From assembly GCA_973895155.1 (NCBI GenBank), contig OZ316892.1, positions 15,802,861 to 15,866,860 on the forward strand: a stretch of DNA of 64,000 nucleotides, written 5' to 3'. Source of the stretch: Marsupella aquatica. Its lineage: Eukaryota > Plantae > Marchantiophyta. The notes below the pieces were generated by a model. The model made no database searches and was not told the DNA's origin. It saw nothing but the letters and a program-made list of their open reading frames with translations. Below, piece after piece: positions 5,101 through 34,659 of the stretch; position 1 is the first letter of the stretch, and each line of letters opens with the position of its first letter. The position numbers and the translations under genes are program-made.

Positions 5101-6176
5101 CCACAGCGTTGATGACGGAGCGTACCTGTGCTGGCTGGGTGATAGGTGGTGGGGTTTGGCTAGGCTACGGCTGAGGCTGAGGCTGGGGTTGCATGGGCAC
5201 GGGTACGGGTACGGGTACGAGTACGGGCCCGGCTGAGTTGGTCATGTTGGTTGATGGCCGAGTTCCCATGAAGCTCTGCAGGTGCTGGTAGAAGTTCTCC
5301 GAAGCGAGTGCGGGCGCCCTTGTTGAACGGTTGGTACTGGACTCGCCGTTAATGACAGCCCGAACCTAGGCAGGGATGTGGTCAAAGTGATGTCGTTGCA
5401 GGTCGATTGTACCCGGGATATTGAAGACCTCGTCCGGAAGCCGAAGCAATGCTTCCCAGAACCCGATATATTTATCTCCGTTGAAGTACCCAGATACCTC
5501 AGCTGGTCGGTAAAGCTCGCTCTGAGATGGGTAGTCAAAGTTAAGGACGTAGTGGTGTCGTCCTGCTAGGCGGATGACTCTCTCGTATTCGCGTTCGATC
5601 TCGTATCGGCGCGGGTTGGCGTGTTTCAATGAATCGGCCAAGTGCCTTCCGGTAGATAGGAACTGCGTCCAGAATCGAATGGCCGAGCTGGAGAGGATCG
5701 TGTGCGACATTCAGAGGAGATAGTAGTGGCGACCTAGAGAGAACGAGAGAGCTGGGGTCAAAGCTGGCGCGCGGACTGATGGACTGGTGCACTACAAAGG
5801 GTTGGCTCCCCTTTTATACTTTGAGGGCTTGTCGATCCCCGACGTCTCCTCGACGCCCATAGGTTGAACTGCTCACGCTTGTGGTGTACCGGTCACTCCG
5901 CCGGTCTGAGTCAGCGTGCGTCAGTGGCCGCTTCCTTAAGTTCGTTATACGGACCCGAGGGAGGGGCCCCTCCACGCTCGTAACCCGGGTGTGCGAATAG
6001 CGACCCGCCGCCAGCCCGAACCTGAAGTCCCCCTTATTGCCTAATGATGTCCTACCCCTAATGATTACCTAAATACTGTCGTTATGCTAATAATAGCGGC
6101 CTAAGACCCACCTAACGCGCGTGCCGAGCGCAGTTAGACTAAATCACTCATTAACCGCCATACCGGCGGCGTCACA
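2174..6176 (-). mobile_element. Probable ~4.0-kb 5' LTR of gypsy element A
   Basis: Starts TGTGACG at 6176, where the gag of element B is interrupted. Ends CGTGACA at 2174, just before the PBS (near-perfect terminal inverted repeat). TATAAAAG box on the minus strand at ~5810-5818. The partner LTR is outside the window. Confidence 0.6.
3071..5710 (-). pseudogene. Accessory ORF of gypsy element A (~879 codons, two in-frame TAGs); Athila-ORF/plant transposon protein-like core with a C-terminal coiled coil
   Basis: Track ORFs 5366..5710 and 3071..5104 share a frame and are separated only by TAGs at ~5366 and ~5166. Core EDMTEFVKNYD...LRGRNMSLTEERLKMIFGLPEG resembles gypsy accessory ORFs. C-terminus is rich in E/Q/A heptads. 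Confidence 0.7.
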
Positions 6177-6970
6177 GAGAGCCAACTCAGGAACTTTTGT
6201 CCACTTTGTTCGTAGGCCCCGTCATAAGTTGGAGGAGTCGGTAGCTGGTTCACTTGGAACATACTCCGTCCAACTACCATTCCCCCCTCGGGATGCGACG
6301 CACTCTGACTACCCAGACTAAGTAAGTACTTAATCTGGGCCCCCTTGTTGTGTTCCAGTTGCTCATAGATGAGTCGTTGATCTTGAGTCAATGGACCCAG
6401 ACCGCCGTCAACGGCTGGGCCCTTGTGGGTTGTATGAGGACGGTCCTCCAACCATCTTTCCTTTGCGGGCCGCCTGTCCTTAGGTTCTCTTGTGGATTTT
6501 GGTGACACCCCCCGCATCTTGCAAGCACCATGACCTCCCGGGATTGAGGTATCACCCGCGTCATCCTGGTTCTGCTTGGTCAAATTATCCACGATGATGT
6601 CCGGCTTGGCATCGTCCTCTGGTTCCGCATTCAACCCTCTCAAGGCTGGGATCAGTTCCTCTTCCGGGTCTTGACCCTCTTCTTCTGTCTCAACTTCAGC
6701 GTTGTCATCGCTTGCAGTTGCGTCGGAGTCGTCGTCATCCGACCCATCCTCTAAAGGATCAGCCGCCTCCTTCCCTTTAAGTTGACGGCACTCTGCACTT
6801 GACTTGTTTGCCGTAGTGGTTGACGGTTCGGCTGTTGCGTCTTCTTTGTCTTGCTTGTAACGTTCGTCTAGGGAAGTCGACCCGTCCTCCTTCTGTTCAT
6901 CGTGAACTTGGGCTCTCCCCTTGGTGGGGGCAGCCTGCTTGCCACTCTTTGCACAAGTGTTTTTTGCCAT
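6177..6970 (-). pseudogene. gag: N-terminal gag of gypsy element B, interrupted by element A
   Basis: ATG 6970 (MAKNTCAKSGK...) lies downstream of a PBS. An acidic linker leads to QLPTPPTYDG, a typical capsid-domain start, and the frame is cut at 6176 by TGTGACG. Confidence 0.65.
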
Positions 6971-7101
6971 GTTCCCAGCAACCAAATCTGCCCGCAGTCG
7001 ACCCGCCAGGGACGTTGAAGCACTAAGTCCCCACAAAAATCCGTTAAGATTTTTGGATTCTGACTTAGCACGACCCCGGTCCGATGTCTATGCCGGCAAT
7101 T

Positions 7102-7115: not shown

Positions 7116-8598
7116 AGTGGTGGACCTGGCCACCCAGCGCCCTCACCAATCCCGGCACTTGCTCTTAAGTGCCCTTGGTGCCCGAACGCCTCCACGGAAT
7201 ACCTCGAGCAAGCATCCAAGTGCCTCTAGCACCACCTACGGCCACTCCCATACAAAGCCGCACTTGCTCACCTGCACGACCGCTACTCAACGGTCCTCAC
7301 TGTCTGCACAAACAACCAATCACCTCAGTAAGTAACCCCTCCGGATCTAGAACTTGCCCAGTCTAGCATCCTAACTCAAGCTCAACATACGTTGGTAAAT
7401 AGGTCAGCGATAGGTCCTCCCGATGCCATAAGCCAGAATCAGAACCCACGCCCACTGTCCGTCCAGAACAACTCCTTCCTTGGGCGCGGCCCGGGTTCCC
7501 CCTCGTACCTATCCATCACCAACTGACCACCCTGACCTCAGGACATGCTCATGGCCCAAATAGGGTAGCTTGTCCTAAAGCTTGTCCCAACATGCCGGGA
7601 CCAGAACGGCCCCGACCCTAGCAATCGCTCCCGGTTCGCCCCACTGATGGTCTAGGGACGGAGCACCCTTGGGACTCAGCCTCCATACCTACTTGGCCTT
7701 GCCTTCCAAACGCAAGCTCCCTTGGGAGGCTGAACGCGGCTTGGCTGCTGTTTGGCAGGATTTGGCAAGCGGACAAGCTAACACCCGCAAACCATGAGAA
7801 CCCACGGCACCCCCGGACCCATCTGAGCTTAGGAGGGCGTAGCCTTCCTCAAGAGCTTTCCAACGAACCTAGGAAGTTCTCCAACGGACTTCCCGTTGGG
7901 AAGATATCGCCATTTCCATTTGGCGGTTTCTCTTAGTGTTGCGACCGCCGCGGCTCACGACTTCGGCTCGCCCTTAGCTCCCAGGGAGACACCACTCCCC
8001 TCATATATGTTTCTGGAGACCTGCCACCCCCGGACCAGCTTTGGTCCCTAAACATTTGGCCCCCAACCCGGATCCCATCGCGCATAATGGGCGCGCCACC
8101 AACTGGCAACGCCCATAACTTTCTTGATAGGCATCCGCAAGCGGAGTGCCGTAGCCCGTTGTGACCGGGCCGACCCAGTGCTCATGCCTAGGCCCTCAGG
8201 TCTGATCGCCGCTTGGGGCCGCCGACCGGCCCAACCCGGATTGGGTCACAACTTGCGCCCCAAGCGTCCGTTGCCAATGGCGTCAACTCCATTGGCCTTG
8301 GGCCCAAGAGGAGCTCACTCCCAAGCCCTTAGAACTCAAAGTCCATCCGACGGTCTGGACGGCCATCCTTGAGCCTGGCCCATTTCCCCTTGACCCGACC
8401 AGCCATAGGCTAGTCCAAGTCCTTAGTTTGTGTCCCCAGCTTGGCCCCTTGCCTCGCCAGTGCCACGTCTCATTGCCCACAAGTCTCCCCATGCTAAGTC
8501 CTCCCCGGATGGCCTATCCGGGCCTGGACCATAAGGGAGCTTGGCGTCGGAGTTAGCGACGTCGGAGCTAAGTGTTAAGGTAGCCGAGTTCCGTGACT
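7116..8598 (-). mobile_element. 5' LTR of gypsy element B (1483 bp, AGT...ACT termini)
   Basis: Aligns end to end with 61250-62625. Shared sequence starts at agtggtggacc and stops at gtgact in both copies. Adjacent to the PBS. Confidence 0.88.
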
Positions 8599-8912
8599 CA
8601 ATCTTACACCCTCATAAAACTTGCAAGCAGTGAAAACATGATATTCATTCTCTATACTAGAGCTATCACAGAGTTGGCAAACCCTATTTTTCTTCTCAAT
8701 ACCCTTCCATCTCCTTTATTCTACTTCAAGATGGTGTTTACTAAGTCTATAGCGAGCATCATATGTCTGAGTACTGAAAAAGTACTAGATAGGTATTCTT
8801 GCTCTCCATAGGGTTCACATCCCTCATGTAGTATTGCAGCCTTGGCCGATCATGCCAAAGTTTGTGCACAGCCCTTTGTTCAAGTACTGATCTAAGCTTT
8901 GTTGGGTGTGTT
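8599..8912 (-). mobile_element. LINE ORF2 C-terminal fragment (same family as 42578-45007)
   Basis: Reverse complement of ~44815-45000. Continues YRLSKHHLEVE*RRWKG...RVCQLC...ENEYHVFTAC, a C-terminal zinc knuckle of RTE-X-like LINEs. Confidence 0.8.
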
Positions 8913-9278: not shown

Positions 9279-11939
9279 CTCCTCTTAGTACCACTTTGGG
9301 CAATATTCTTGTAGTAAACTCTGGTTGTTCTTGAAGCAAAGTCTTTGTTAGAAGCACTCCAGAGCTAGTATACTTAGAGTCCAATGTTCACTTCAGTTCT
9401 TCTTGAGTCTTAGCTTTAGCCTTGCAAGTACTTGGATATGGCAACACACTCCATGGCTCCTCCACACATTTGAGGATTGGCTATGGCTCTTTAGATGCTC
9501 CCGGAACATCATGGTAGGGTGCTGGTTTGCATATGTACTACTCACTCTACATGCTACATACATATTACTCAAGAAGAACTCTCTTGACGGGATTACATCC
9601 GCTGATGTAGCAATATGGTTTTGAGTGATAATTGTAGAGTGAAGCACTGAATGTGAAAGACGTTCATGAATAGAGGGAGGTAGATTTGTATAGGGATAGG
9701 CCGAACACAAACTTGCAAGTCATCATTGGTTCTCAAAACGCCATTTTGAGCACATCTGAGTTCTATTCTGGTCGTAACTCTTTGGTCACTTGACGAGACT
9801 TGGAGCTTTTAGCATGGTTGGAAAGCTCTCATTGAGGCACAAAATATTGATATAAATAACTCCAAAAAAAAAGTTCTATCAAGTGAGATACACTTGCTGA
9901 TATTTTGACTTCACCAAAACACAAGTTCGAGATAATTTTGCAAATAATATGTGTTCATAGAAAGAGGAATGTATATAGAGAGGAGAATGGTATCTTATGT
10001 ATTATTATTAAAATGATAACATGCATGACAATTTTTTATCATTTTATTAATATTAAAAAATTATTAATAAAAAATATTTTGGTGGGATTTTTATTGTACT
10101 AAAAGAAGGGGGTAATCTTGACTAGTATTCATAAAAGAAATAAATTGCAAAACAAAACGTAATTCATCAAGAACTATAATACAAGGTTGTGCCAAAAAAC
10201 GCCTTGGTTGTCATTCAAATTTGGCGGCCCAAAAAAACAGAAACGGCAAAAAGTGAAAGCAATATAGAGGGATAAAAAACCAATCCTCCCTTTTGTCGCT
10301 ACAATCCTGTGTTGCCCCGCACTGAACCCTTGTCGCCTCGGTAAAAGATGGAAGAGGAAAACACCGTCGCGACCACCCTGCACCCACTGTCGCCGTGGCC
10401 CAATTCACTGTGGGCCGACTGCCCCTCCCTGTATGATCGCCGCGGCACAACAGGCACAGCCCTGAGCGGCCGTCCCCCGCCCCGACCAAGAAACTCCATC
10501 GACGGCCTGACTTGCCGCCATCCCCATCTTGACTTGCCATCCCTCAATGGCCATGCCCTCACGCCTCGCCATCCTTTGGCATCCCTTGCTTGCCCTCGCT
10601 CCTCATCGCCATGGCCCTGCCCTTGCGCCTCGCCTGCCCCTGCCTCACTAGAAGAAAACGTCCCCTTTTGAGACCCTATGCTTTGTGACTTTAGGGAGAC
10701 TTTCAAAAATACATGACTCCAAGTTTAGGGGAGTCATTGTTGTTACATTTTATCAACTGATTTTTGGGGGATATTTGTGAAAGTCATTCCTACAACTTCT
10801 GATAAAGTAGCAATTGTAACACTAGTAGGGCAGTCATATGTAAGTTGAATAAGCTACTCTCCATTACGGCATTCTGAAATAGAGTGCAAGAAGGATTACA
10901 TGCACTCTAGACATCACGGAATGTTCCATTTACAACCCTTGACTTGCAACTTGCGGAGTCGGGAGCACTAGGTGCACATAGAAGGAATGGGGGTTTAGGG
11001 TTGCAGAACTAGTTAAATGTCTTCATGTCAAGAGCATTGTAGTTATCCTGGCCTAATTAAACGTGCATGGGAGTACTTGCCTCTATAATAGTAAGTCTTA
11101 TGCTGCTCAATGGATTCCTTAGAGTTCATGGGCAACTTTGACAAGAATATTGGGGTGATATCATTTTCAATTCAGGGCTAAAGTAGTGTCTGGCCCCCAT
11201 TCTTTGTCCACCCTCCCTAAGTGGCATGTGTAAGGGTTAACTTACAGTTGCGTTCTAAGAGGTTACAGTTGCGTTCATTTAATCTTTGCTCACAAAGTGT
11301 CATGTCCAATTTGCTTTAGGGTACTAACATGTGTATCAACGGCTCATGTCAACGCAAAGTGGTCGAGGCTCATTGGGTTTGGTTCACTAAGTGTCACTAA
11401 GTGTTAAGGTATGCTTTGTGCGTGAGTGTGCCTTTGGACACGAGTTTAGGGTGCGCGGGTTTTGTTTAGGGTTTAAACACGCCCGCAGAGTGCAAACTTC
11501 AGTTCAATGTGCGTGGGAACTCGGAGGTTTTTGTTTCAGAAAAACTCACTTGTCCATTACGGGGACATTCGTCATGCCTGAAGGTCGTCACATTGTGCGC
11601 GGTCTCACGAAGTGGGGAGTGTGCTTCGCGATCGGGGCAGTTCCTTCGCGTAGGGGAGTTTTGCGCTTGGAGCTTGAAGGTTTACCTTCAAAGCTCTAGA
11701 GCATTCAAGCTGAGAGGGCAACCGGCTTGCGGAGTGGAGAGGTGAGCTTCAGTGGATGACGAGCTCTAGGACTGGGAGGAGCTGTGGGCGGGCAGGAGCT
11801 GCAATTTGGGAGCTGCTCTGGCCGCCGGTCTGGCCGAGGAGCCACGAGCGGAGAGCAGCTGGAGTGGAGTTCGAGCGGAGTGGAGCTGGAGTGGAGTGCT
11901 TCTGTCACACACTGCTGAGGATTGCTACGTAGCTTCAGT

Positions 11940-12105
11940 TTGGGTGGCGGTGCGAGCAGAGGTGCTGAGAGCGGCTCAGGTGCCAAAGGAGGTGGTGCCA
12001 GCGGAGGTGCGAGCGGAGGTGCTGAGAGCAGCTCAGGTGCCAAAGGAGGTGCTGAGAGCGGAGGTGCGAGCGGATGTGCTAAGAGCGGAGGTGGTAAGAG
12101 AGGTG
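11940..12105. repeat. Degenerate GC-rich tandem repeat (ggaggtgc...gagc units)
   Basis: Repeated ggaggtgctgagagc, ggaggtgcgagc and tcaggtgccaaa units. Confidence 0.7.
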
Positions 12106-13792
12106 CTATTGGATCACTGAGAAGGCTACAACCTCTCTATCTTATTCCTACTATCTGGCGGTTGCAGTTGGAAGGAGGGTCGAGTGGCGAACATTTTGTC
12201 AGTTGAGGACTCAGCTGCGGGTTTGTCATTTCCTGGAGCTCAATCGCTTGCTGCTAAGACTACTGTTGCTGCAAATTTGCAAGCTGCTTGATCATGAGCT
12301 ACCTAGCTCCATTGTGAGTTGCCTCCCTATTCTCCTTGTTCTCCCTGTCTCCCCCTTGCTTGCAGTTACTATCGCCAGGAAGAATGTGTTTGGCCAAGAT
12401 GCTAGATTGCGACTTGTCTTCTTGCTTCTAGCTCGTGTATATGCTGGCATCCGTGGGGGTTCCTCAAGTTTGAGTCTGCAGAGGAAGAGTCTATCATAGT
12501 CTAATTAAATGTGGGCCATATTACTCTGGTCAATGAATGAGTTCCCTGGAAATAGAACCTCTCTGATTATAGAGGTGCGATTTGGTCAGAATTTTTTCCC
12601 CTCTCATTGTATCCATTGATGCCAACTCACTTTCATCACCTCAATTCTGAACAATGAGTGTAGTCTCAGGCTCCATACTGCCTATACTGAATGGTCTAGC
12701 TGCGATGTCCACCTCGGCTGAAGTGAGCTCTGACTTGGAGCCTTAACATTTGTGTTCTGTGGGGCTGATTAGAGTTGGTTCCGTCCAGAAGCTGCTCTAC
12801 TAAAGTGATAGAGCTCCGGCTTGGAGGTGGATCTTCACTTTTTTGTGGGTCTGAGTGACTTCTGTCTAGCTGGGCTTAGCTGAGTCAGTAATACATTCAA
12901 AAGAGGTGAGTATCCCTGACCAACATTTATTTACTCTTGACCACGCCAAACTAATGGCGCTTCAATTTGAACTTTCTAAGTCTGACTGCTGACTCCGCTC
13001 CTTAAAACCTACCTTAATTATATTCATGTCTTTCTTTTGTGCATGCGCATAATGTCTTTCATTCAGTTTAACATTAAATGTGAGACAGGGCTGCATCCAG
13101 CTCTTCTAGATGACAAGAAGGCATTGATCAGTTGCTTTTTGATCTTTCCTCACCAAACAAGAAATCTTTCTTACAAGAAACCTGTCTTACAAGAAATCCA
13201 GCCTGGCCGAGAAGCTGCAAGTGGGGAGGATGTCTGTAGAAATTTGTAAGGAGTGGTTTGTCTCACAATGCCATTGTTGATGAAACCTTGCTTCTTCTTA
13301 ATCCAATGCTTGCTGCCTTGTTACAACGTTTGTCTAGTTGACCGCTTCAGTGCCTATTCTTCATTTCCTGTTGTTCCATTTTTGGAAATTTATGCTTAAG
13401 GAACCTGCATTTCCTTCCCTGTCCCCATGCTATCTCCACTGCACCTTCCACTGCTAGCTATGTTGATTCCTTCCACTGCTAGCTCTAGACAATGATGCAG
13501 TCCAAATGCTGATCAGTCTCACTAGGGGTGCGGGTGCAGACACAACTCGCACTGTGTGATTGTAGTTTTGCTTTGTCGAAACGAATGTGTTTGGCTAAGA
13601 TGCTAGATTGTGGCTTATCTTCTTGCTTCCATCTCGTGTATATTCAATTAGTAGAAGCTGGGAACGAAGTGAAAATTGAATTTCCTTATATTAAGCATCC
13701 TGACCTAGAAACTCAATACATAAACTCCTGGAGTCCCTCGGGACATAAAATGAGCCAAATTGTTTCAAAATTGGGAACCTACACCGCACTAC

Positions 13793-14132
13793 TCAAACAA
13801 ATGTGTTGGGCTTGGTGGCCTTGTAAGTCGTCTTTAGCTTTCGCGATGGAGGTTGAATGTTGCGGTACGTCAAGGGGAACTTGATCTTTGAATCATGGAA
13901 CTGCTTGGTACTTTCTCGCTTGCACAGAGAGACAGGGACTGTCGTAGTCTTGATGATCTGGATGCAAGGGAACCGAACTCTATGACAAGAAGCCATCTCA
14001 TCATACATCTGCTGTGTGGTTGTTTAATGTGGTATCACGATATTTCTTGTACATGTTGGGATAACCTATACGACTCTGATACCTCACCCAGATACCGAAG
14101 TTCTTAATTGTGGTGGGCTTCTTTTCGAAGAT
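13793..14132 (-). pseudogene. RPL18A: Captured last exon of 60S ribosomal protein L18a (eL20) inside the CACTA
   Basis: After acceptor ctaccag|: [37 protein letters not shown], a frameshift, then [46 protein letters not shown]...[15 protein letters not shown], matching the plant L18a C-terminal half. Confidence 0.92.
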
Positions 14133-15141
14133 CTGGTAGACACATTATTCAGCATTTGCTAACTTCGAAACTAGAAGGGTAACACATTAAACAATAGAGA
14201 AACTCACAACATCCTCCTTTGGTCCTTCAGAGTCTATACTTTGATTATGAAGTTTGACTGAGTTTCTGTTTACTGAAAGAATGTGACTGTGTAAGAGTTT
14301 CGTTTGGCAGTGGATTGGTTGAAGCACTTCATGCTAGTGTGTTGTCCACAGCTCTTCAACCAGCTTTCATCTTCCTTGTCTTTCACCACTTACGATGACA
14401 TCAATTCAGCTAAGACCATAGAAGGTTCCAAAGCATCTAACTTGTAAAATCGCATTCTGTTACATCAAGGACTAAGGTGTTGGGTGCCAAAGGAGACAGC
14501 ACAACAAACACCCTGAAAAGACTTCAGGACTGGGTTCAACAAGGTAGTGAAGGTGCTTAGAGCCATAGTAAGTATGCATTCTGTATCTTTCTCTGTTGAT
14601 GTGAGCTTGTGCATAATGGGAGTTGTAGTTGGCAAGAGTTCCAAATATGAATAGATCCAGAAGTATGTGATCATGTACTTGCTCTATAAAGTTCTGAAGA
14701 TATAAGCATTTTCTGTTAGACCAGGCAACTTGGGAGTTGGTAAGTGTCACCTGCATCTGAGGGGCTACACCGGGGGCATCAGTGGAGGTTCACTTGCACA
14801 ACACGACAACCAGTGAATTTTCTCTCTGCTGCAACCTGCAAGGTGAGACTTTTGGTCTTTCTGGATGAAAAAACAGGATTTTAATACGATTGATATACAT
14901 GTTCGTCGAGAATATGGGTTTATCACCAAGCTCTTTGTCTTAGGAAACTCATAAACTCAGAATCAAATATGTACTATGCACGTTTCATGCTATGTGTATA
15001 CTATGACCTGTAGTTGGAACCAAGACAATGAGTGGGAACTGATTAGTTTAGGTGGTTGTTGTTGGCGAGGCAAGTCGACCTCCTGCTCACCTTGCTCATC
15101 AAAGGACGTGAACAGAGGACATCACAACGAAAGCAACACTT

Positions 15142-15591
15142 ATGGTGAGGACCCGCAACGCTGAACATGTGCGACTTGCACGCAAGGCAGAGATGTTGCG
15201 CCTTGAGTATGTCAGACTTGGGATCCTTCCAGCCCAGTCTGCATGGTACTTTGAGTACCCTGTTGTTTCCAGGAACAACTACAGCCGGCCTCTACCTGCT
15301 TCAGTACCCTTCCCGACATCCTTGGTATTTGTGTCTCTTGTACATGACCCGCCACAAATTAGGTGCCAAGGGTGTGTACATAGTTGCCAATATGACTATC
15401 CTGCCTGTAGGGCTTCTGGCCCAGAATTGGATGACCGTTCTCTTGGATGCCGATTTTTGCACAGAGCACAATGTATCATCTGGAACCACTCGCCATCCTG
15501 CAGTGTGCCTGGTGATGTCACTTGTCCTGCCCTCCCAAACCCCACCACTGGTGACTTTGGTGTCTACACATGCTTGGATCACATGCTCTAG
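15142..15591 (+). CDS. Cys/His-rich ORF of unknown function in the CACTA
   Basis: 149 codons from an ATG (MVRTRNAE...) with clustered Cys/His (CQGCVHSC...C...CRFLHRAQC). Same strand as the transposase. No family recognised. Confidence 0.35.
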   Translation: MVRTRNAEHVRLARKAEMLRLEYVRLGILPAQSAWYFEYPVVSRNNYSRPLPASVPFPTSLVFVSLVHDPPQIRCQGCVHSCQYDYPACRASGPELDDRSLGCRFLHRAQCIIWNHSPSCSVPGDVTCPALPNPTTGDFGVYTCLDHML

Positions 15592-16206
15592 AGGACCACT
15601 TGTCACACCGCATGCACAGACCAGATACCATTGACCTATAGCTTAACACTCTCACTTCAACACAGAGGATATTTACTTAAAATTTTGATGTATGAGCAAT
15701 TTTGGGTCCAGGGTTTAGGGTCAACAGTACATAACTTATCCTATTATGCCTGCACTAAGCAAAATATCCTAATTTAAGAGGCTAGCAAACTCGCATAAAA
15801 GTCTCTATTGAAAGACTGCTTTCATGACTGCTTTAACCTGGTGAACATTGCAACGTTCAATGAATTAATGGGCCATGTGATAACCTGTAAAATGTGATTT
15901 ATGCATCACTTATTTGTCTCAGCCACTATCATAGCCTATTTAGGATGTATAAATTTCAACCCTTATGACACTGCTTCATACCAATCCTCTTCGAAGAATG
16001 CCTGTTTTACATGTCACGACTATTGTATGTGATTCAAATGCATGAAATGTTGTTGCAGATCTCCTTTGGTGAATCATAGCCACAATTAAAATTGAGGTGT
16101 TGGTGGAGCAATTGTATTAGGGGATCAGGTTTGTGTGTGGGCTCAACATACCAAAAGTATGTCTGCTCTGCATCCTTGTGTGGCCATTCCAATTCATTGC
16201 AGTAGC

Positions 16207-16350
16207 AAATGCCTTTGTACCTTAAATGCTAAATATATTTTACTTTCTGTGCAGTCTGCTAAATTGTAGAGTCTATCTAAATGCCTTTGTACCTTAAATG
16301 CTAAATATATATTACTTTCTGTGCAGTCTGCTAAACTGTAGAGTCTATCT
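16207..16350. repeat. 72-bp tandem duplication upstream of the PHD ORF
   Basis: aaatgcctttgtacc...gagtctatct occurs twice (16207-16278, 16279-16350) and contains a tttctgtgcag acceptor-like motif. Confidence 0.9.
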
Positions 16351-16361
16351 CATGCGCAGGC

Positions 16362-17042
16362 ATGGCACGACCTAAAATTCAAGCCAAAAAGCGTGTGACA
16401 GAGGTGAGAAACACAGGTGTACTTGGGGCAGATGCTACTAACTTCTCTGCAAGTCAGATTTTCCAGAAGGCAGCTCATTGTTGTGCCATTTGTGACGATG
16501 GTGGGGGCCTGGTCATTTGTGAGGGCCCTTGCATGAGGCATTTCCACCTCAACCCGGAATCTGACCTTGCTGTAGAAAACAACTGTCCAGGGGTGGGCCT
16601 CCCGTCAACACACCAGGGAGACTGGATGTGCACTGATTGTTTGGAGAAGCAGACTAAGTGTGCACAGTGTGGGAAGTTGGGGTCCTATGAGGGCTCTGTT
16701 GATGCTGCAGCAAATGTTAGGAAATGTCCAGACCGTTTTTGTGTGAGATTTTTCTGTTTTGAGTGTTTGCCTGCTCATGCCACAGCTTGCCCACTTCATA
16801 GGTGCAAGGCATGTGATGAGCATGATCATGAGTACTAGACTGACATAGTCCACTATGCTAGGTGTCCCACCATGTGGCACTATCATTGCCTGAAAGATCG
16901 TCAAGCAGAGGGTTATGCTTGTGATAGAGAAATCTATGATCACTCTGCACATGGTGTTGATCGATGGATATTTTATTGTCATCGCCATGCCATTGATCCT
17001 ACCTCGCGCACTCCTGTGAGAGATCACATGTCTTGGCTGTGA
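16362..17042 (+). pseudogene. EDM2-like (NSD-type) PHD-finger cassette, ~226 codons, one internal TAG
   Basis: CAICDDGGGLVICEGPCMRHFH...WMCTDCLEKQTKCAQCGKLGS...VRKC...C...CPLHRCKAC. Past the TAG at 16836 the frame continues RCPTMWHYHCL...WIFYCHRHAIDPTSRTPVRDH, colinear with the PHD region of Arabidopsis EDM2, including its IYC..H.ID....TPVRDH motif. Confidence 0.85.
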
Positions 17043-17634
17043 AGCTGAACATTGTACATGCACAATGCACCTGATGTGGATGTACTATTTTTTGAGATTG
17101 TAGAGATTCCAATTTTGAAAAGGAGTTGGGTAGGCGAGTTTATATAGGCAGCACTTATCTTGTGCTCTGGCGTCAGTGGCTGGGTACATGCCTATAAAAA
17201 CTTATCCTTACAAGCCTTCTTGGAAGTATTTAGGCTGAGTGGTCATTTTCATAAACACTTTCATCAGACTGCTAGATTAAAACAGGACTTCTAAGTTGTA
17301 AGCGTATAAATTATCAGGCATGCAATTAATCAAATTGCCCTATAAGTTTGTCATTGAACGTATCCTCCTTTACAACAAAATATGTATGTGCCATGACAAG
17401 TTGGTTGCACTTCATTTCACCTTCGATATGGATTTTGTAGTATATATTCAAACAATGTCCTGCATCCGTGCAGGTGCCTAGTACGTATTGTTCACATATC
17501 CCTTGTACCTATCAAAATTGGACCTGAGCACCAGTGGGCCAGATCAACTCAAAAAGCAGGAATTTTATTGTCCTTGTATTGTCAGGTGAACCCATTCTTC
17601 CAAAATTCACTGTCATCACGTAGGGTGTGTGTAC

Positions 17635-18507
17635 ATGGAGCCTGGGAAACGTAGAAAGTGTGACCACCCAGCAGTGTTTACAGGGGTCAAAGCCATTTTG
17701 GTCCATGGCCAGCATGGGTTGACCAAAGTGCATTGGCCAACTGTACAGAAACGATTCTCTGAGCTCCATGGCACTGTAGTTCAGGACATCACTCCAGAGA
17801 CTACACATGTTGTTGTAGGGACATGGCTATCAGTGATAAAGAAGTGGTCATGGTCCTACATGAATTCTGCAATTACTAAGCAAGGCCTAAAAGTAGTTGA
17901 GGCCTCTTGGATCACAGATTCCATAGCACATCAGATTGTACAGGATACTGAGCAATATGAGCTGTGGGAGGATGAAGAAGCTACTGCATCAGCTTGGGCT
18001 GAACAAGAAGTCTGGGAAGCAAAGGCACGGCTTGCTGATGTCCAATATGGACCTGTACTCAACAAAGGACAGAGCTCTAGAAGGCTGAAGAGTATGTTGG
18101 CTGAGGAGACGAAGCAACCAACCCCCATTCTGAAAGGGCTGAGCATGGTATTTGTGGAGGCGGGAATTGGAGAGGTTAAGTGCAAAGTGTACAAGTCCAC
18201 GGTGCTTGACCTAGGTGGGACAGTGGAGGAGAATATAACAGAGGACACCACTCATGTCATTACTAAGTCATATCCCAAAGCCTGCCGCAAGTTTGGGAAG
18301 GGAGACATTCGCTTTTATGTCATGTCCCATAATGTGTTTGTGGTTTCATATGCTTGGCTTGTGGAATCAGTAGCAGCTGGGAAGCGTCAAAACCCAATGG
18401 ACTATGATCTTTTTGAGGCCTGGCCACGGAAGGGTCAGGATCCTTACAGAGAGGACTATGAGACAACAAGTGAGGAATGGGTCATTAGCGATTATGAATC
18501 AGAGTGA
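17635..18507 (+). CDS. Tandem-BRCT protein (290 aa)
   Basis: Two BRCT units: VFTGVKAILV...HGTVVQDITPETTHVVV...VVEASWITDSI...EQYEL and ILKGLSMVFV...LGGTVEENITEDTTHVIT...VVSYAWLVESVAAGKRQNPMDYDL. Uninterrupted frame. Resembles the DNA polymerase lambda-type BRCT. Confidence 0.85.
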   Translation: MEPGKRRKCDHPAVFTGVKAILVHGQHGLTKVHWPTVQKRFSELHGTVVQDITPETTHVVVGTWLSVIKKWSWSYMNSAITKQGLKVVEASWITDSIAHQIVQDTEQYELWEDEEATASAWAEQEVWEAKARLADVQYGPVLNKGQSSRRLKSMLAEETKQPTPILKGLSMVFVEAGIGEVKCKVYKSTVLDLGGTVEENITEDTTHVITKSYPKACRKFGKGDIRFYVMSHNVFVVSYAWLVESVAAGKRQNPMDYDLFEAWPRKGQDPYREDYETTSEEWVISDYESE

Positions 18508-18992
18508 GGAGTAGTAGCATCAGTTTGGACACAAGTTTTTTTGTATAAATCAGATCATTGAAATAAATGTGATCTTTGAACTAATGTACCTTGTTATGGT
18601 TAGTGGCAGTTGAGCTTATTTTACTGTTGGCGGATTGTTGTTTCCTGCTGCCTGGGGGTGTCACTATAAACGTACATGCCTCTGGTACATTTGAGGACAG
18701 CGGAGGAGGTGGTGACACCCTCCAACATTTAGGAATTTTGTGTCATTCACTTGACAATAGGTACACTACTTGCGAACCTGTTTTTTTCTTTTGGGGTGGT
18801 TTAGGGTTTGTGAGAATTTAGTACACGTTATGTTAACTCTTTTGGCAGATACAGTCAGGGATATATGGAACACAAATACCACCATTAGGCATCCTTGTTC
18901 ACTGCTGTCCATGACTGTAGAGCTCCCAGCCTGTTACAATGCACCCTGGTCACCACCCTCCCCAGACCCAGCCCAGGGCATAGGCACTGCCT

Positions 18993-21900
18993 TTGCATCA
19001 TCCCACAAGGATATCACGCCATGATAATAAGCTTTGGCAGCGTGAAAGGTTACGAACCAGACTTTCAGGAGCCAGTAGGATGAGATGTCCTTGTGCAATC
19101 TGCCAAGGATTCCATACCAAGGGTCTGAATGAGGTTTGGCGGCATATCGCGGTTCATGGAAGAGATCCACGACATCGAGTTTGGAATGATCTTGTAGAGG
19201 AAGATTCTTCCGACGAGGAGTGGAGGTTAGAATTTGATGCTGCCAATGCTGCAAGACGGGCAAGTGAGGTTCTGCCTGGTGCATTTGAAAATGTTGTAGT
19301 TGGTCTCTATGGGTTGTCAGCTCTCCAACGGGATGGTGCTCAGGCAGCACCACGTGACAAAGGAATTCATGTGGAAGAGATGGTGAGAGACATCTTCCAA
19401 GACTTGGATGCATTTCATGATGGGCTGGACAACGAAGAGGATACGGCTGCAGATGCAAGTGTGCCCCCTGTCGAAGAGCCTCTTGATGAGTTTGAGATAG
19501 GGCAGGAAACCCCTGGGCATGATGGGATGTTTGGCTCTCCCCTACAAATACAGGAAGGCAGGAAGTCTTTGTACCCCGGTAGCAAATGTTCTAAACTGGG
19601 ATTTGTCATCATGTTCCTGAACATTTGCGGCAACCACAATGTCCCCAACGTTTTGGTTTCTGAGTTGTTGGCATTCTTGCGAACAACTGTGCTACCAGAT
19701 GGTAATATTTTGCCCAAGAACATGTACGAGGCAAAAAGATGCATATCTAATCTTGGATTGAACTATGATTTGATCCATGCCTGTCCTGATGGGCATGTTC
19801 TTTTCAGAAAGGAGTATAAAGAATCGTTGGCATGCCCTAAGTGTGGGAAGCACAGGTATCGGAACTCAGGAAAGTCTATGGTTCTCGCCAAGGTACTTCA
19901 TCATTTTCCACTCATTCCCAGACTTCAGCGGATGTTCAGAAGCCGTGCCATCTCGGAGATGATGACTTGGGCAACTGACAAGAAAAGTGATGATGGGCTA
20001 CAATGACATGCTGCAGATTCAAGGCAATGGAAACTCATAGATGAGATGTATCCCGAATTTGCTGCTGAGCTGAGGAATGTCAGACTTGGGCTGTCATTGG
20101 ATGGGGTAAACCCATTTGGAGACAAGAACAACAAATTTCCGTGCTGGCCTGTAACTATTTTGAATTATAACCTTCCTCCTTGGATGACTACAAAGCAATT
20201 TTTTGTCTAGATGGTCCTACTGATACCAGGGCCAGACAGTGCTGTATCTGCCAACATAGATGTGTTTCTGGCTCCCCTAGTGGAGGAATTGAGAAAGCTT
20301 TGGGAGGAAGGAGTCCTCACATATGATGTCCTACAGAGGCTTGGGAGGTTAAACCCATTCATCCTTAGAGCCATTGTCATTCTGACTATAGCTGACTACC
20401 CAGCCCATGGGATGATATCAGGCCAAACAACAAAAGGATATTGTGCTTGTACTATCTGTGGGCGCAATGTCACCAGTGAGTACTCCAGAGCCCTTCAGAA
20501 AGTGATATACATGGGCCATCGTCGTTTTCTGAAGGCAGATCACCCTTACAGAGAAAGACAGGCACTAATTTCACACTTTGGCAATGAGATTGAGCAACGT
20601 GGACCCCCGGCACGAGTGACCAAAGAGGAGATCAGGCAGTGGGGAGCACTGAGGGATGACTATATCAAACGAGGGGGCAGGGAAGATGGAGTGAGTGATC
20701 CAATAAAGCGATATGGTGTAAAAAGACTGAGCATATTGGACTTGAAGCTCAAGTACTGGAGGGTAAGCCTCTTGGAGTTGATGCTAATTGGGATACATGT
20801 TTTGGTTCAGAGCATGTGCATTCATTTCGAAGAGAGAGACTAAACCTGAGGCATTTCCTGACGCTTTTGCATTGCAACGATGCAGGAGTTTGAGCCAAGC
20901 AAACATAACATTGATGTTATGCACATTGAAAAGAATATTTGTGAGAGTCTACTCAGATTCTTGTGTGGAGAGAAAGACACTGGTTCAGTGAGATTGGATC
21001 TTGAACAAAGGGGAATGAAACCCCATCTTTGGTTGAGGCCACATGCCCACAGAGCTGATGTGCTCTTGAAGTACCAAGCGCCCTATGTTCTGACAGACAC
21101 AGAGTGGGAACTATTTGTGTAGAGGTTGAGTTCTTTGAAGGTTCCTTCAAACTATGGCAGTGCTTTCAAGAAGCATATCATGACTAGAAAACTTGGTAGT
21201 ATGAAAAGCCATGACTACCATATGTTGATGCAACAAGTGTTGCCTTTATGCCTGAGGGGCCTGTTGCAGAAGCTTGTTCGTACTGTGATCATGCGACTCA
21301 GTGATGTGTTTCGTCGTATTTGTGTGAAGGTTTGGGATGAAACACACTTCCCACAACTGACAGAAGATGTCGCTCAGGTGCTGTGTGACCTGGAGATTTA
21401 TTTTCCTCCCGCATTTTTTGATGTCATGACCCACCTACTTGTCCATGTTGTGGAAGAGCTACACCAATTTGGGCCTGTGAGTGCTTGTTGGTTGTACCCT
21501 TTGGAACGGTACATGAAGCTACTCAAAGGTCACGTGAGAACATATTACAAACCTGAAGCAAGCATGGCTAAAGGTTACATCAAGGATGAGACTCTGGGAT
21601 TTCTGACCGAATACATAGCACAATATGAGCATGTGAAGACCAGGGTGTGGAATTCTGATGAGGAGGAAGGGGTGATAGGTGAAGTACTGGAAGGGGCTGC
21701 AACCACAAAGAACCTGACCATATCTATGAGAGACTTGGCACATGACTTTGTATTGCACAACACTGTGGTGATGGAACCCTGGATACAGTGAGTGCATACA
21801 TGTGCTATAATCCAGTTCATGAGCTTAAATGTTGTGTTCGTGTGGTTTTCTCCTTCAGCCTGTTCATGTTTACCCAAGCTAATGTTGTGTGGTTGTTCGT

Positions 21901-22669
21901 TCAGGGAGTATGAGTCATTGAAGGCGGCCCATCCCACTGCAGGAACAACTTTTCCAGGTTTCATGGAGTGGATCAGAGTGGCAATTAGAGAGCATCACGA
22001 GACCCACCCAAACATGGATGCAGATGTTTACCTACTGTCTAATGCCCCTAGCCTGAAAGTGAAGACTTACAAACGGATGAGAGCATATGGGAATCACTTT
22101 CGAGTGAAGGATGGTGACAGTGCTACAGGGTGACGAATGACTGTGGGCTCATCACTGTATTTGAGCAACAGAGCCACAATCACGACAGGGCCTGGATGGA
22201 GATGAGATATGTGGGAGAATTAGTTGACATATGGGCTCTGGACTATGGGGCGGTGTCCAGTCCTGTGATTCTTATGAAAGGTTCATGGGTGCAGCAGGAT
22301 TGGCTTGGTAACAGGGCTACCATGAAGAGAGACAACGACGGTTTCTTGCTGGCCAATTTTAGAGGGAAATTGCCCGAATGGTTTGAGCCATTTGTGTTTC
22401 CTAGTCAGGTGGAGCAAGCTTTCTTCTTGGATGTGGAAGACTCCCCAGGTTGGCGTGTAGTGTGTCATAAACAGGCCAGGCAACGTCGGATGGAAGGATC
22501 AAACCTTGAGTTTCATTTACACTCTCATAGTGCCTTTGATCGTCGGCGTTCATACCAAGTGCCTATAGTTCATGATAGCGGGGACTTCATTCCTGTGACA
22601 AGGGTAGATGCATTTGCTGAAGGAGGCGAATTCAGAGATGCAGATGCCAACAGTGTGCCTGTGCCATGA
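18993..22669 (+). pseudogene. CACTA TnpD/Tnp2 transposase
   Basis: Transposase-associated RCPCAIC...HIAVHG; IHACPDGHVLF; PLIPRLQRMF; RNVRLGLSLDGVNPF; DYPAHG; DVMHIEKN; MKSHDYH; FFDVMTHLLVH; EPFVFPSQVEQAFF. Introns 20763-20885 and 21788-21904. Stops at 20004, 20208, 21120 and a break at ~22131. Confidence 0.95.
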
Positions 22670-22825
22670 GTAATGTGAATTGTTTGCATGGACATTAGTG
22701 AGGGGAAGGATGTGTAATAAAGTAATTCTGAAGCAACACAGATGTATGGATGGATGCCTGGTGATTGTGGTTGCATTGTGTTATACGGGGTGACCATAGA
22801 TGACATGTTTTTGTGGTCCAGTAGG

Positions 22826-25823
22826 ATGGAACAGAGTGACACAGAGATGTGTGAGTATGAAAGGAAAGCTATGGAACAACGAGCATACGTGAAAGCCAAA
22901 ATCGCAGAACTGGATCTGGAAAAGGATGTGGCTGAATTGTAAGGGAATGATTCTCAACTACACCCCTCCGCTGAGTTTGTGTGACATGAATAGTTCAATG
23001 TGGCACTGAAATTGTGACTGTATTCTCATATTGGATTCAGACAACATGAAATTCTGTCCACCTGCCATTGCATGCAGATTCTGCCCAACCTGATTGGGCA
23101 AATGCTAGTAATGATCAGTTCCAATGTCCACAAGGACAGACATGGGTTGAACCAGGTTGGGAGGATGGTGGTGGGTCGTGGAATGAACAAGGTTGGGAAG
23201 GTGGTGAAGGTAATTGGCAGGGATATCAAAATACAGTACCTACAAACGCTGGAAGAGGGGCAGGTAATGTCTGATCTTGTCAGCAATGGAAGAACTCATT
23301 ATATCTGGAGTCCATTCACGTGGGGGGGATTCTGCACATGTATAATGATAGAAAATGTATGTGTGCAGGTTGGATAGTCGAACTATCGACTCAAGTATTC
23401 ACTAATGCCCCTATGCAGATGCAGCACGGAAGGGGGACAGGTATGTCGGTGAATGTTCAGTTGTTTTCCTATAGTTTGTACTTAGTTTTCAGTACATATG
23501 TTTGCACACACATACCTAGAAAGTGACATCATCCGGCCCCTGTACTAGGCTGGACAGGTGGTCCAGGGTCGCAACAATTTCAGAGTGCAGTCCCTGCACA
23601 GGCATCTATAGGCAGAGCTACAGGTATGTATGTTTGAAGAATTTTTCTTGAAGTGAAGCATTGAATGTTGCCGTCATCCATTCTGCTATATGTAGTTCTC
23701 AAGCATGAATGGCATTGTATTTTCCCAGGTGGCTTCAGAACCCCAGGTAGGGTGAATGAAGGGGTGGCCAATACAACGCCCAGTACTACCGAGAGCAGTG
23801 CACGAGGGGAGGTGACAAAGAAAGGGAACGTAAAGTTGAATGAGAGACAATGGGTGGATGCTGAGTGTCCTCGCAAGAACCGATGGCATGCTAATTTGAA
23901 AGCTGAAGTATTGCGTTGGTTAGATGTGAGTGTTATTAATTAAAAAAAACAGCATCCAAAAGATTGGAAGACTGTATGTGAAAATGTTGCTGCCAAATGG
24001 AATTATGTGGGCAGTGATGATGGCGTGGACATAGGTTGCCTAGAGAGTACAGCAGGTAAAATCATCAAGCAAGAGAGGTGGAGAATGCATAAGGCTTGGA
24101 AGGAAGGTGGGGAGAAGCCAGATATACCTCCACCAGCCAGTTGTGATGATAAAGTGTGGGCAAGGTTAGTAGCTTATTTTGTAACAGATGCTTCAAAAAA
24201 GAAGAGTTCACAGATGACCGAGGCTAGGTTGAGTGTTCAGAACCCTAATCTGACAGGAAGGACCGGCACTGCACCGACAGCTAAACGTTTGGTAAGAATG
24301 AATGGCCTAGCTATGTAATTTATGCTACACTATGTATTGTTTTTTAGTGTAAACCCATACATGTAAACTTTGTTTTTTAGTGTACGTTCCCTGAATATTG
24401 ATCGATAACTTGTGTTTGCCATGCATGTGCAGAAAGCCCAATTGGGGCAAAGCCCTTCAAAAGAAGAGTTGAGGGCTGAAATTGTGAACACCCGGGCTCA
24501 AGAGGGTGCATCTGAATCCTCCAAGCATGTAAGTTATATGAGTTCTGATTGGTAATTGAATGACCTGCGTTGAATTTCAGGTGTACACTGTATATAACAT
24601 TGATTGTGCATATATTGCCCAACATTTCATATGGAGTGATTGAACCTATACCCCTGTGTCATGTAGGGAGGTGGATCTTCACTTACAGAGATAAGTGGTC
24701 GTTTGAAGGCTATCGAAACATGTCTTCCAGAGCTCAATGAACGTTTGAATTCATTGACTGACTTGTTCCATGTGAACTTCAAGACATTAATGGAAGCTGT
24801 TGTGTCGGTGAGAGATAAAATTGATTCCAATTCTGCAGGAGTTCCACCATCACCACTTGAGGTGGCAAAGTCGATGCACTCTTCTGGCATGCCAACGACA
24901 TGTAGGCTTGAAGGTAAGGCCTTTACAACTGTGTGGGATATGATTATTAAATGTATAGTTTGAATTGACATTGTTTGTTGAATGTGTTATTTTCAGTAAC
25001 ATATATTGTGGTTGTTGTGTCCATAGAGAATAAGACAGGTGCTACAGAGACGAAGTATGAGAACCTGGCAAATACTCGTTGTAATTTAGAGGCAACAAAG
25101 TTGCAGTCTGTACAAGCAACTTGTTTGACAGAGGGCAGTCAACCATGTTTGGATGAGGATGACATTGGCAAGGGAGTGGATGATATCAATGTTGGGGCAA
25201 ATGAGGATATCAGCAAGCATGACAATGATACCATTGAGCCAGATTCATGCTATGTAGATCTTGACTCCATTGCAAAGATAAATGATTTGCAAAATGTATC
25301 ATTCTCAATGACAGGTGTGCCTCTTGTTGAGATAAATCCAACCAAAGAGTTAGTTGGTATGACACTCCTAGGTGATGAACCTACTACTGTGATAGTCCTA
25401 ACAGAGGAACCTACTGAGCCTAGCTTCACTACTGTGAAGAGAGGAAGAATGCGCACACGAAGCAAGTCTGCTGGTGGGAGCAGAGCCACGTCAAAGGTTT
25501 CATACAAACCTCCAAGAACGGTGCTGGCAGAAAGATCTAAGGTGGAAGTGGGGAAAGCACCTAATGCTGAGGGACAAAGTGGCTTGTTAGCTCTTGATGA
25601 GAGTGGAACACGAGTAGGATTTGGCAGAGTGCAGGTTGGTTCCACAACGTTCCATGGCAAGAGGATTCCCCCAGGTTATTCAGTAGTGTTAGTCACATTA
25701 CTAGTGAAACCTAAAGCTGTCCTTCCCATTCCAAACACAAATGATGATCCTCCTCAAAAGACACTTGGAGATACTGCAGGTTCTTTGGTATTATGGCCAA
25801 GCAAGTTCATAGAGGATCCATAA
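22826..25823 (+). pseudogene. CACTA TnpA/ORF2-like multi-exon gene
   Basis: Several short GT-AG exons. PPPASCDDKVWARLVAYF...KKKSSQMTEAR...NLTGRTG (Ptta/En-Spm-like), then C-terminal FHGKRIPPGYSVVLV...LPIP...TLGDTAGSLVLWP (Tnp1-like). In-frame TAA at 23941. Confidence 0.8.
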
Positions 25824-26379
25824 CAATGTCATGCCATTATTTGTTTGTAGTGTGAGTCATGTTATGTAGATTTTAGATGTCAAGAAGCAGTACAAGAATC
25901 ATGTCCTCTTGGAAATTCATAGTATCATGCATGTGCTTTTTGTATCTCATCCTGCAGTCATCAATTATGAGTTCCTGTTTTGTCTGAATTACATTGATCA
26001 CATTGTAAACTATTCCATTGGAATTCAAATGATCTTCATTTTTTAGCAAGATTGTGATTGTGTTTAATTCTTATGAATGTTTTATGTAGGATCTGCTTAT
26101 ATGATGCTTTGTTTCATGTGGATGTCATTCATGCTATGTTCATTTCTTGTATTCAATGTGTTATATTTCTAAAGTTAGAACATCAGGTTTCTATGTATTG
26201 TAATGTCGAGTGCTCTCTCTCCTTATGAACTGTCCCTCTGTGTTCATTAGTCATGGTTATAACTTGCATGTGAACCTTATTAGTTATAAACATGAGTATA
26301 TAGAGTCCCAAATGGTTCTGTTGTGTGACGCGGGCCAAGGTCTCCATTGGTCTCTCCTGTGACACTAAATGGTCACACG

Positions 26380-26660
26380 CTAGTCGTTGTTGAATGCGGG
26401 TAAGTCATGTATGTGACTTACGATGTGACTCGCTGAAGTCATATTGCAGTCACGTCGAAACAAGGCTAGACTCCACAATAAAGTCACAGATCAGTCACAA
26501 ATGGGTATCAAGCAAGTTGCAAAGCCCAGTATCAATAGTGACTTCCATTTTTTGGTCTCAACTTTTGCAACTCCAAGGGTCACAGCGTGGGTCAAGTCAC
26601 GTTGAGTCACAATGAAGTCACATGAGCCAAAATGAGTCACATATTGCGGTCTCAGTTCAC
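26380..26660. repeat. CACTA 3' subterminal repeats
   Basis: Many AGTCAC(A)/GTGACT motifs in both orientations; similar motifs at ~10680-10790. Confidence 0.75.
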
Positions 26661-26680
26661 CTCGGATTCTTCTAGTGCCT

Positions 26681-34475: not shown

Positions 34476-34659
34476 ATCAATAAAAACCTCATCATGTGTA
34501 TTCTCTTCAAAATATTTTATCAAGTGTGAATGTTATTCTTTCACTTTTGTTCTTAACATCTTTTACTTCATAACGTCTTTGACTAATGACATATTTTACT
34601 TATCAACCATATTGTACTTACAACATCGTTAAACTTAACCAAATTTTGTTCTCAACATC

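Follow-up and report, generated by a model that had tools for sequence, protein, structure and literature searches.

Chromatin readers tied to transposition machinery include the PHD finger of RAG2 and the chromodomains of chromoviruses. A PHD finger linked to transposition machinery has also been reported in the Rehavkus transposase (PMC6446971). In plants, the counter-silencing proteins VANC (of the VANDAL MULEs) and TnpA (of Spm) are transposon-encoded accessory proteins that recognise DNA motifs; they are reported to be sequence-specific DNA binders, TnpA being derived from a transposase DNA-binding domain (PMC6446971; bioRxiv 10.64898/2026.08.24.746577). The chromatin-related cargo described for EnSpm-type elements is enzymatic: the red-algal Plavaka elements, which are giant (17-19 kb) and high-copy, carry three chromatin-type accessory genes, PAG1-3, that are described as putative writers and erasers (SET, adenine methylase, 2OG oxygenase; bioRxiv 10.1101/2025.02.11.637652). 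Among host proteins, the PHD fingers of Arabidopsis EDM2 reportedly recognise H3K9me2 among other marks (PMC7529245, PMC7472560, PMC3632883), and the AAE complex reportedly promotes distal polyadenylation across heterochromatic elements (PMC7472560, PMC9292364). The fingers of NSD1, NSD2 and NSD3 (PDB 7crp, 29hg; 4gng, 9gbf) sit in large SET methyltransferases and have no stand-alone mobile form. Finally, G9a/GLP and influenza NS1 engage histone enzymes or readers through short H3-like motifs (ARKT, ARSK), histone H3 itself starting with ARTK and carrying ARKS at 7-10, as stated in the consulted section of a review of histone mimics (PMC6028506).

The window, that is, the whole stretch of DNA analysed here, comprises 64,000 nucleotides of the liverwort Marsupella aquatica (contig OZ316892.1, positions 15,802,861 to 15,866,860). 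It contains a CACTA transposon that carries a gene for a short PHD protein. Its features, in coordinates of the window, are the following:

10643..10645, no strand: left target-site duplication CCT, read from the sequence
10646..26677, plus strand: CACTA (EnSpm) element of 16,032 bp, delimited by terminal inverted repeats (TIRs), target-site duplication (TSD), Pfam matches and family variants
10646..10656, plus strand: left terminal inverted repeat CACTAGAAGAA, 11 bp
15142..15591, plus strand: Cys-rich ORF of 149 codons, a possible further accessory gene recognised from its open frame alone
16207..16350, plus strand: 72-bp tandem duplication with an acceptor-like pyrimidine tract and AG, directly 5' of the PHD ATG
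16362..17042, plus strand: intron-free PHD ORF of 226 codons, with an H3-like tail, a short linker and an EDM2/NSD-type PHD module
16365..16391, plus strand: codons 2-10 of the PHD ORF, ARPKIQAKK, identical to H3 1-9 at 5 of 9 residues by sequence
16836..16838, plus strand: premature TAG, Trp in the family, from variant depth
16854..16856, plus strand: Tyr165 at a conserved Cys position, from variant depth and alignment
17635..18507, plus strand: uninterrupted twin-BRCT ORF of 290 codons with its own ATG (PF00533, E 1.6e-13)
18984..22669, plus strand: TnpD-type transposase in several exons or pieces, from Pfam
23944..25823, plus strand: TnpA-like exons, their probable extent taken from open frames
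26667..26677, minus strand: right terminal inverted repeat, inverted copy of CACTAGAAGAA
26678..26680, no strand: right target-site duplication CCT, read from the sequence

The element possesses the features of the CACTA/EnSpm superfamily: TIRs starting with CACTA, a 3-bp target duplication (CCT on both sides), and both a TnpD (Tnp2) transposase and a TnpA-like gene. The TnpD region matches Transposase_21 (E 3e-36) and DUF4218 (E 5e-27), both above the Pfam cut-off, and more weakly Transpos_assoc and DUF4216, while the TnpA-like assignment is based on a Transposase_24 match (E 5.6e-5 at 23944-24315) that lies below its cut-off. All ORFs are encoded by the plus strand in the order Cys-rich ORF, PHD ORF, twin-BRCT ORF, TnpD pieces and TnpA-like exons, and no TIR, inverted repeat or TSD of a nested element is seen around the PHD ORF. 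An earlier note, made from the letters of this DNA, had placed the PHD ORF within a transposon, an assignment that the TIRs, the CCT duplications and the downstream Tnp2 and DUF4218 matches bear out, but it had overlooked the neighbouring twin-BRCT ORF. The copy carries stops and a frameshift in several of its ORFs, its differences from the family including a stop at 20004 in TnpD and a one-base gap at 22122. Its insertion site is a GC-rich repeat upstream of a Helitron. The CpG observed/expected ratio within the element is 0.23-0.49, as compared to 0.70 in a GST gene of the same stretch, a depletion consistent with a methylated target.

The twin-BRCT ORF starts with a basic stretch and has two intact relatives (P0163 and P0164, 294 and 295 amino acids long, 61% and 55% identical); its best PDB matches are the BRCT repeats of BRCA1 (E about 0.004). 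A splice joining it to the PHD ORF was considered and set aside: a fusion of the two products appears unlikely because the GT at the PHD stop is only weakly donor-like and a TGA in the BRCT frame follows the acceptor at 17586. Upstream of the PHD ORF, the 149-codon Cys-rich ORF returns no match in Pfam, Atlas or PDB. It begins with MVRTR, loosely H3-like in this one sequence. Many contigs map to the portion of the element where it lies, and it may be an accessory gene, the third of the element.

Translated in frame 1, 16362-17042 gives ATG, MARPKIQAKKR, a Cys-rich body, TAG, HYARCP, TPVRDHMSWL and TGA, the ORF ending four codons past the last conserved His. The translation agrees with the earlier description of a single ORF with its own ATG, a basic N-terminus, one internal TAG (at 16836-16838) and a stop after TPVRDH; the claim of a stand-alone module holds at the level of the reading frame, and the tail is indeed basic, although its likeness to H3 had escaped notice. 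Position 16837 is G in 99.0% (run X1) and 99.6% (run X2) of the mapped contig depth, and position 16855 is G in 99.6% (X1) and 98.9% (X2). The family codon at 16836 is TGG (Trp159), proteins P0001-P0003 carrying W there, and the relatives have Cys at position 165, which confirms the Cys-to-Tyr change suspected earlier in HYARCP; both the stop and the Tyr therefore belong to this copy. Uninterrupted versions exist, as had been anticipated, but with TGG and not the CAG that had been proposed at 16836: the relatives are 226, 220 and 245 amino acids long and 77%, 72% and 50% identical.

The region, whole or partial, is present in 9 of the 11 sequencing runs listed, four of which contain at least half of its words; one of the best-matching runs may be the source of the stretch itself. 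In four of four runs, none of the 30 bins of the element is left without contigs. These number in the thousands, are short and of mixed identity, as expected of a many-copy family. The 801-bp PHD stretch is represented by 420 contigs in X1 and 1,301 in X2, also of mixed identity, while its cover in runs X7 and X8 is patchy or very low.

The ligand pattern and the homology across two and a half fingers identify the module as EDM2/NSD-type. In Pfam, NSD-type PHD models match the ORF below their curated cut-offs (PF23011, E 2e-5), and PF22908 also does so, again below the cut-off, once the stop is read through. An alignment profile of the relatives retrieves NSD2 and NSD3 chains from the PDB (E 4e-11 to 2e-8), with no EDM2 chain among its matches there. 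Searched against proteins, the profile returned 337 at E<=0.001; most of the best 150 are long EDM2-like proteins, and short proteins rank above every long one. Named EDM2-like matches include those of Marchantia, Riccia, Selaginella (whose member is named EDM2), Diphasiastrum, Ceratopteris and Artemisia.

A feature diagnostic of the family is found in 20 proteins, all of 245 amino acids or fewer. Six of them (P0001, P0002, P0003, P0007, P0154 and P0155) are uninterrupted from PHD1 to the final motif, and many relatives are truncated or broken; identity among the relatives is 40-80%, with a family bootstrap of 100. The eight short proteins looked up all come from Logan, ENA or JGI alone and correspond to no organism-named gene, in contrast to the long homologues, for which named annotations exist. 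The same gene, again intron-free, is present at two metagenome loci of 1.5-1.9 kb, L001 and L002; one of them has a stop ahead of PHD1 and the other a frameshift. These contigs are too short to show a transposase, and the linkage of PHD and transposase genes is seen in this stretch alone. Because so many members are broken and the family is absent from named annotations, we infer that the whole clade is transposon-borne. No longer, fused forms occur among 190 candidates, in a search that is weak since it also missed host EDM2 proteins, and scans for related loci found nothing in viral contigs or prokaryote genomes.

The phylogeny against host EDM2 proposed in the earlier note places the family in a separate, deep clade. 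In a quick tree of 146 rows, from which 12 of the 158 proteins (short matches, one duplicated-domain protein and one fragment) are omitted, a single group (SH-aLRT 94) unites 12 short proteins. A more careful tree, built from 44 rows chosen by the analyst, keeps all nine family rows together with support of 100/99 and a stem length of 1.45. By AU tests, the family may be sister to the liverwort paralogues (p 0.23), liverwort EDM2 (p 0.15) or a moss group (p 0.26), none of these positions being rejected, while grouping with four rows of a large, presumably seed-plant, clade is rejected (p 0.009). The likely ancestor of the PHD gene is a host gene of the EDM2 type, acquired long ago. A fragment recently captured in the manner of Pack-CACTA elements was set aside in view of the 26-37% identity to host PHD modules (the sampled ones, rather than Marsupella's own EDM2), the long separate clade and the pattern across codon positions. 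A lack of intact copies, or a neutrally decaying sequence nested in the host EDM2 clade, had been named beforehand as the outcomes that would undo the idea of an element gene; uninterrupted versions exist, and the gene is no neutrally decaying fragment of a sampled host EDM2.

Two other sets of proteins are of note. A second short EDM2-PHD group of 255-390 amino acids (P0037, P0039, P0071, P0091, P0109, P0132 and P0142) lies near the large EDM2 clade; three of its members start with MAR.K, and it may be an independent reader-only derivative. The liverwort paralogues of Calypogeia, Riccia and Marchantia (P0012, P0015, P0019, P0047, P0053 and P0058) have their PHD module at the C-terminus, end just past it and are without the methyltransferase-like domain.

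Conservation of the family is of the coding type. The 25 Cys/His zinc-ligand positions are all kept in seven of the eight full-length relatives checked, and 24 of them in the eighth. Between the PHD ORF of this copy and L001, which are 42% identical in amino acids, identity at codon positions 1, 2 and 3 is 0.59, 0.60 and 0.33, only 7 of 27 four-fold sites are alike, and the DNA similarity of the element to L001 and L002 is limited to the PHD ORF. The retention of ligands together with third positions near saturation indicates a coding sequence under selection. Current variants give a weak signal: among those listed (25% share or more), 13 of 37 are silent across the ORF (p 0.09-0.17). Within the finger core, and with five changes private to this copy excluded, the count is 9 of 20 (p 0.03-0.06); the Tyr of this copy is the sole ligand change among them. 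The PHD ORF is thus very probably a selected accessory gene of the CACTA family. The earlier suggestion of an anti-silencing or targeting factor finds support to the extent that a selected accessory chromatin factor of a transposon, forming its own deep clade, is present.

The family shares with Arabidopsis EDM2 and the land-plant EDM2-like proteins the atypical PHD module of two and a half repeats and the same ligand positions, but differs in most other respects. Its members are about 220-245 amino acids long instead of 800-1800, and the gene is intron-free, resides in a transposon and encodes an H3-like tail 28-48 residues before PHD1. The methyltransferase-like ELP domain, the PGR and the acidic regions are absent; as every other EDM2 domain is missing, the protein is not a member of the EDM2 family. 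Within the module, position 132 of PHD2 is a Cys in 12 of 17 family rows and a His in 56 of 60 host rows, the PHD2 spacer counts 7 residues instead of mostly 25-27 (an insert of ~20 residues is absent), and the pre-Cys site of PHD1 reads Q..(A/P)H (Gln35/His39), whereas most hosts have acidic residues at 35 and 38. These differences in the pocket and PHD2 mean that the mark specificity of EDM2 is not to be assumed, and with the other domains gone, the read-through link to EDM2, ASI1 and AIPP1 drawn in the earlier note is not well supported. The NSD fingers, which match by PDB profile (E 4e-11) and are the best matches by fold, differ from the product of this short ORF in being embedded in large enzymes.

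The tail resembles the N-terminus of H3, in which residues 5 and 6 are Q5 and T6. Relatives carry ARCKRPAKK, ARTKVQSSK, ARPKKMAKK or SRPKVVARK. Over 19 N-termini, R2 is kept in 16, K4 in 17, A7 in 11 and K9 in 13, while positions 3, 5 and 6 vary. The summed identity to H3 1-9 is 78, against 53.8+-2.8 (maximum 63) for shuffled tails and 56.0+-4.3 for permuted motifs, 0 of about 3000 of which attained that sum; when scored with BLOSUM, 0.1% of the permuted motifs do better than the H3 motif. These figures are to be read knowing that the motif was chosen after the sequences were seen and that the 19 tails are kin. Eleven of the 19 tails score 5-6 of 6, and eight, including those of the intact P0002 and P0003, score below, as compared to 0 of 88 long host proteins scoring 5 of 6 (in two windows of 45 residues, one at the N-terminus and one directly ahead of PHD1). 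One subclade has an internal motif with Ser as its first residue, which would leave no free Ala amine. Several EDM2-like host proteins of non-seed plants and algae start with MAR(T/V), so that part of the H3 likeness may be ancestral. The N-terminal 25 residues match nothing in the PDB. With a likeness beyond chance that is conserved in 11 of the 19, the tail is, judging from sequence, a probable H3 mimic.

An AlphaFold2 model of P0001, computed from 77 aligned sequences, has a pLDDT of 88.8 and a pTM of 0.83; a fold computed from three sequences (pLDDT 43) was set aside. Its best fold matches are NSD PHD fingers (Z 5.6-5.7, rmsd 2.6-3.2 over 83-85 residues). In an all-PDB fold search, NSD2 alone exceeds Z 5 and no row spans the tail. 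The model has β-bridges at residues 2 and 6-7 as well as at 48 and 50-52, and its pLDDT is 66 over residues 1-10 versus 46 over 11-20. Residues 48-52 align with G306-C310 of AIRE PHD1, the segment that pairs as a strand with H3, D312 and D297 of AIRE contacting H3R2 and K4me0, respectively, according to the consulted part of the report (PMC2261226). As in readers of the AIRE/BHC80 type, the equivalent of D312 is an Asp (Asp54) in 15 of 17 family rows, the other two being gaps, and the acidic patch 45-49 is kept in the family; the equivalent of D297, in contrast, is His39 in 14 of 17 rows, unlike the K4me0 contact of that type. Structural alignment to the JADE1-H3 complex (8ge0_B; Z 2.1, rmsd 4.1, 60 aligned) begins at model residue 1, versus residue 38 for apo JADE1, while that to the AF10-H3 fusion (5dah_A) covers the model from residue 37 only and excludes the tail. 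Docking of the tail in the histone groove of PHD1 is plausible in this model, and no more than that as the JADE1 and AF10 rows are weak (Z about 2). When the tail (2-31) and the PHD core (27-226) were modelled as a complex, without an alignment and by a method unproven for peptides, the score was 0.15 against a mark of 0.34, too low to speak for or against docking.

In our favoured but tentative reading, the transposon has in the PHD protein a selected accessory factor that acts as a histone-tail-gated reader or decoy and likely counters H3K9me2 silencing. From sequence and model, the protein is predicted to combine a PHD module that binds histone H3 with an H3-like tail of its own. Removal of the initiator Met would expose a free Ala, and the tail would occupy the PHD1 groove as H3 does. 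Host writers and readers of H3K4 and H3K9 might then treat it as a substrate; its modification would both divert this machinery and switch the PHD module from its own tail to the nucleosomes of the element, with weaker H3K9me2-type silencing of the element as the outcome. Whether a wider picture applies, in which a non-seed-plant CACTA lineage encodes a counter-silencing protein whose H3(1-9) mimic gates a stripped-down EDM2 reader and absorbs H3K9/H3K4 machinery, with a twin-BRCT partner, is more doubtful. Several observations speak against a gated reader: the eight low-scoring tails, intact P0002 and P0003 among them; the post hoc choice of a motif found in kin and the BLOSUM permutations that surpass it; His in place of the Asp that contacts K4me0; the AF10-H3 alignment that omits the tail; the weak selection signal of recent polymorphism; and a transposase that adjoins the gene in this stretch only. 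The tail might also be a basic arm for nuclear localisation or DNA gripping. That last idea can be taken further, to a selected accessory gene whose tail is such an arm and whose module is a protein-protein scaffold binding no histone. The basic tail, the missing H3 spacing in P0002 and P0003, the replaced acidic K4 contact and the likewise basic start of the BRCT ORF all fit, but a basic arm explains neither the non-basic A1 and A7 kept at exact spacing while positions 3, 5 and 6 vary, nor the far worse fit of same-letter permuted motifs, nor the conserved D54 and acidic patch 45-49, and we judge this reading quite improbable.

A cofactor of targeting or excision, of which RAG2 PHD beside RAG1 and the chromovirus chromodomain would be analogues, would draw on the same sequence and fold evidence as the gated reader. 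The PHD module would tether the TnpD/TnpA complex to nucleosomes of a particular H3 tail state, the tail would be an autoinhibitory latch, and the twin-BRCT protein would handle DNA breaks; the twin-BRCT ORF, with its intact relatives, does sit between the PHD gene and TnpD, and this copy did insert into another GC-rich repeat adjoining a Helitron. However, this is a single insertion site and both accessory ORFs encode separate proteins without a visible transposase-binding part; we consider such a cofactor rather unlikely. It is improbable that the module imitates EDM2 by binding H3K9me2 and recruiting or displacing ASI1-AIPP1-EDM2, so that a leader would be spliced to the distal TnpD/TnpA exons past upstream poly(A) sites. 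The homology to EDM2 PHD fingers is genuine, four or five ORFs share one orientation, acceptor-like AG motifs precede the PHD and BRCT starts, and the AAE complex reportedly favours distal polyadenylation through heterochromatic elements (PMC7472560, PMC9292364). Against this, the protein is without the acidic, PGR, methyltransferase-like and proline-rich parts that the consulted text assigns to EDM2 (PMC7529245), its pocket and PHD2 are altered in a family-specific way, and in the portions of the literature consulted AIPP1 binding is not mapped to the PHD module. It is very improbable that the gene has no role for the element, being either passive cargo captured in the Pack-CACTA manner or the recently acquired member of a small host gene family that lacks annotation. 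In favour, a transposon context has been demonstrated for a single family, the skew of recent polymorphism towards silent changes is only weak, and the AU tests allow a sister position to liverwort paralogues, liverwort EDM2 or a moss group; yet ligands are kept at 40-50% identity with silent sites near-saturated, truncation or breakage affects many relatives, as is usual for repeats, and all eight short proteins, unlike the long homologues, are without an organism-named gene.

Compared with the described systems, the gated reader that we tentatively favour may work like the VANC, TnpA and PAG1-3 accessory genes, by analogy, yet it belongs to none of them. Unlike VANC and TnpA, it is a histone-reader module of host origin in which no DNA-recognition domain is evident, encoded beside a TnpA-like gene, and no VANC-type match is among the Pfam matches listed for the element and the PHD ORF. 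The PAG genes are putative writers and erasers, whereas the cargo of this CACTA element is of the reader type (PHD and twin BRCT). The Rehavkus, RAG2 and chromovirus readers are single fingers fused to or partnered with other transposase or integrase families and are not EDM2-type. The H3 mimics of G9a/GLP and NS1 belong to a host enzyme and a virus, whereas here a DNA transposon links the putative mimic to a PHD reader. If the reading is right, a conserved histone reader that includes its own H3 mimic would add a third design to motif-recognising proteins and enzymatic cargo, a reader-only cassette would offer an anti-silencing route needing no sequence-specific DNA binding, and viral-style histone mimicry would reach a DNA transposon. 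Under the rival readings too, there would be a selected chromatin-reader gene of a CACTA family, apparently undescribed in the literature searched, and the ~25 kDa protein is a compact, well-predicted stand-in for the PHD1-3 module of EDM2 and NSD proteins.

In the literature searched, no paper joins CACTA elements with PHD and BRCT, or with BRCT in moss, no title on EDM2 and CACTA concerns a transposon-borne EDM2-type PHD gene, and, by title, no chromatin-reader gene of a CACTA family appears in the broader literature. Neither of the terms PHD and BRCT appears in the main texts of a survey of 962 Spm protein structures (bioRxiv 10.64898/2026.08.24.746577), of the Plavaka report (bioRxiv 10.1101/2025.02.11.637652) and of an Arabidopsis TE-product atlas, though the supplements of the first two, and Repbase, may contain such an ORF; 'transposon' occurs 0 times in the histone-mimic review (PMC6028506). 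The PHD gene is real and selected, an apparently undescribed kind of transposon accessory cargo with a probable H3 mimic.

The remainder of the window holds further repeats and host-like genes. Downstream of the CACTA element, 164-bp repeats at 27869-28962 precede Helitron Rep/helicase pieces (PIF1, Helitron_like_N) at 29271-35250, which are followed by 36-bp and 46-bp tandem arrays. A repeat of ~1.5 kb occurs in two copies 54 kb apart (7116-8601 and 61250-62628, about 80-90% alike) that probably represent the LTRs of a single retroelement family. No clear Pfam match exists for two large ORFs on the minus strand, 3071-5164 and 6134-7087, and an array of 37-bp units with internal inverted symmetry is found at 47201-47963. 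A SURP-module exon at 38125-38802 belongs to a probable host splicing-factor gene, and host-like genes are present at 52963-54814 and 55398-55838. The closest PDB relative of the host-like GST gene, which encodes a CPYC motif, is the cyanobacterial Sll1902 (E 8e-35). This resemblance fits the iota class, which is not known from seed plants, in keeping with a non-seed land plant as the likely host. The other host-like stretch contains an exon that looks like TatC.
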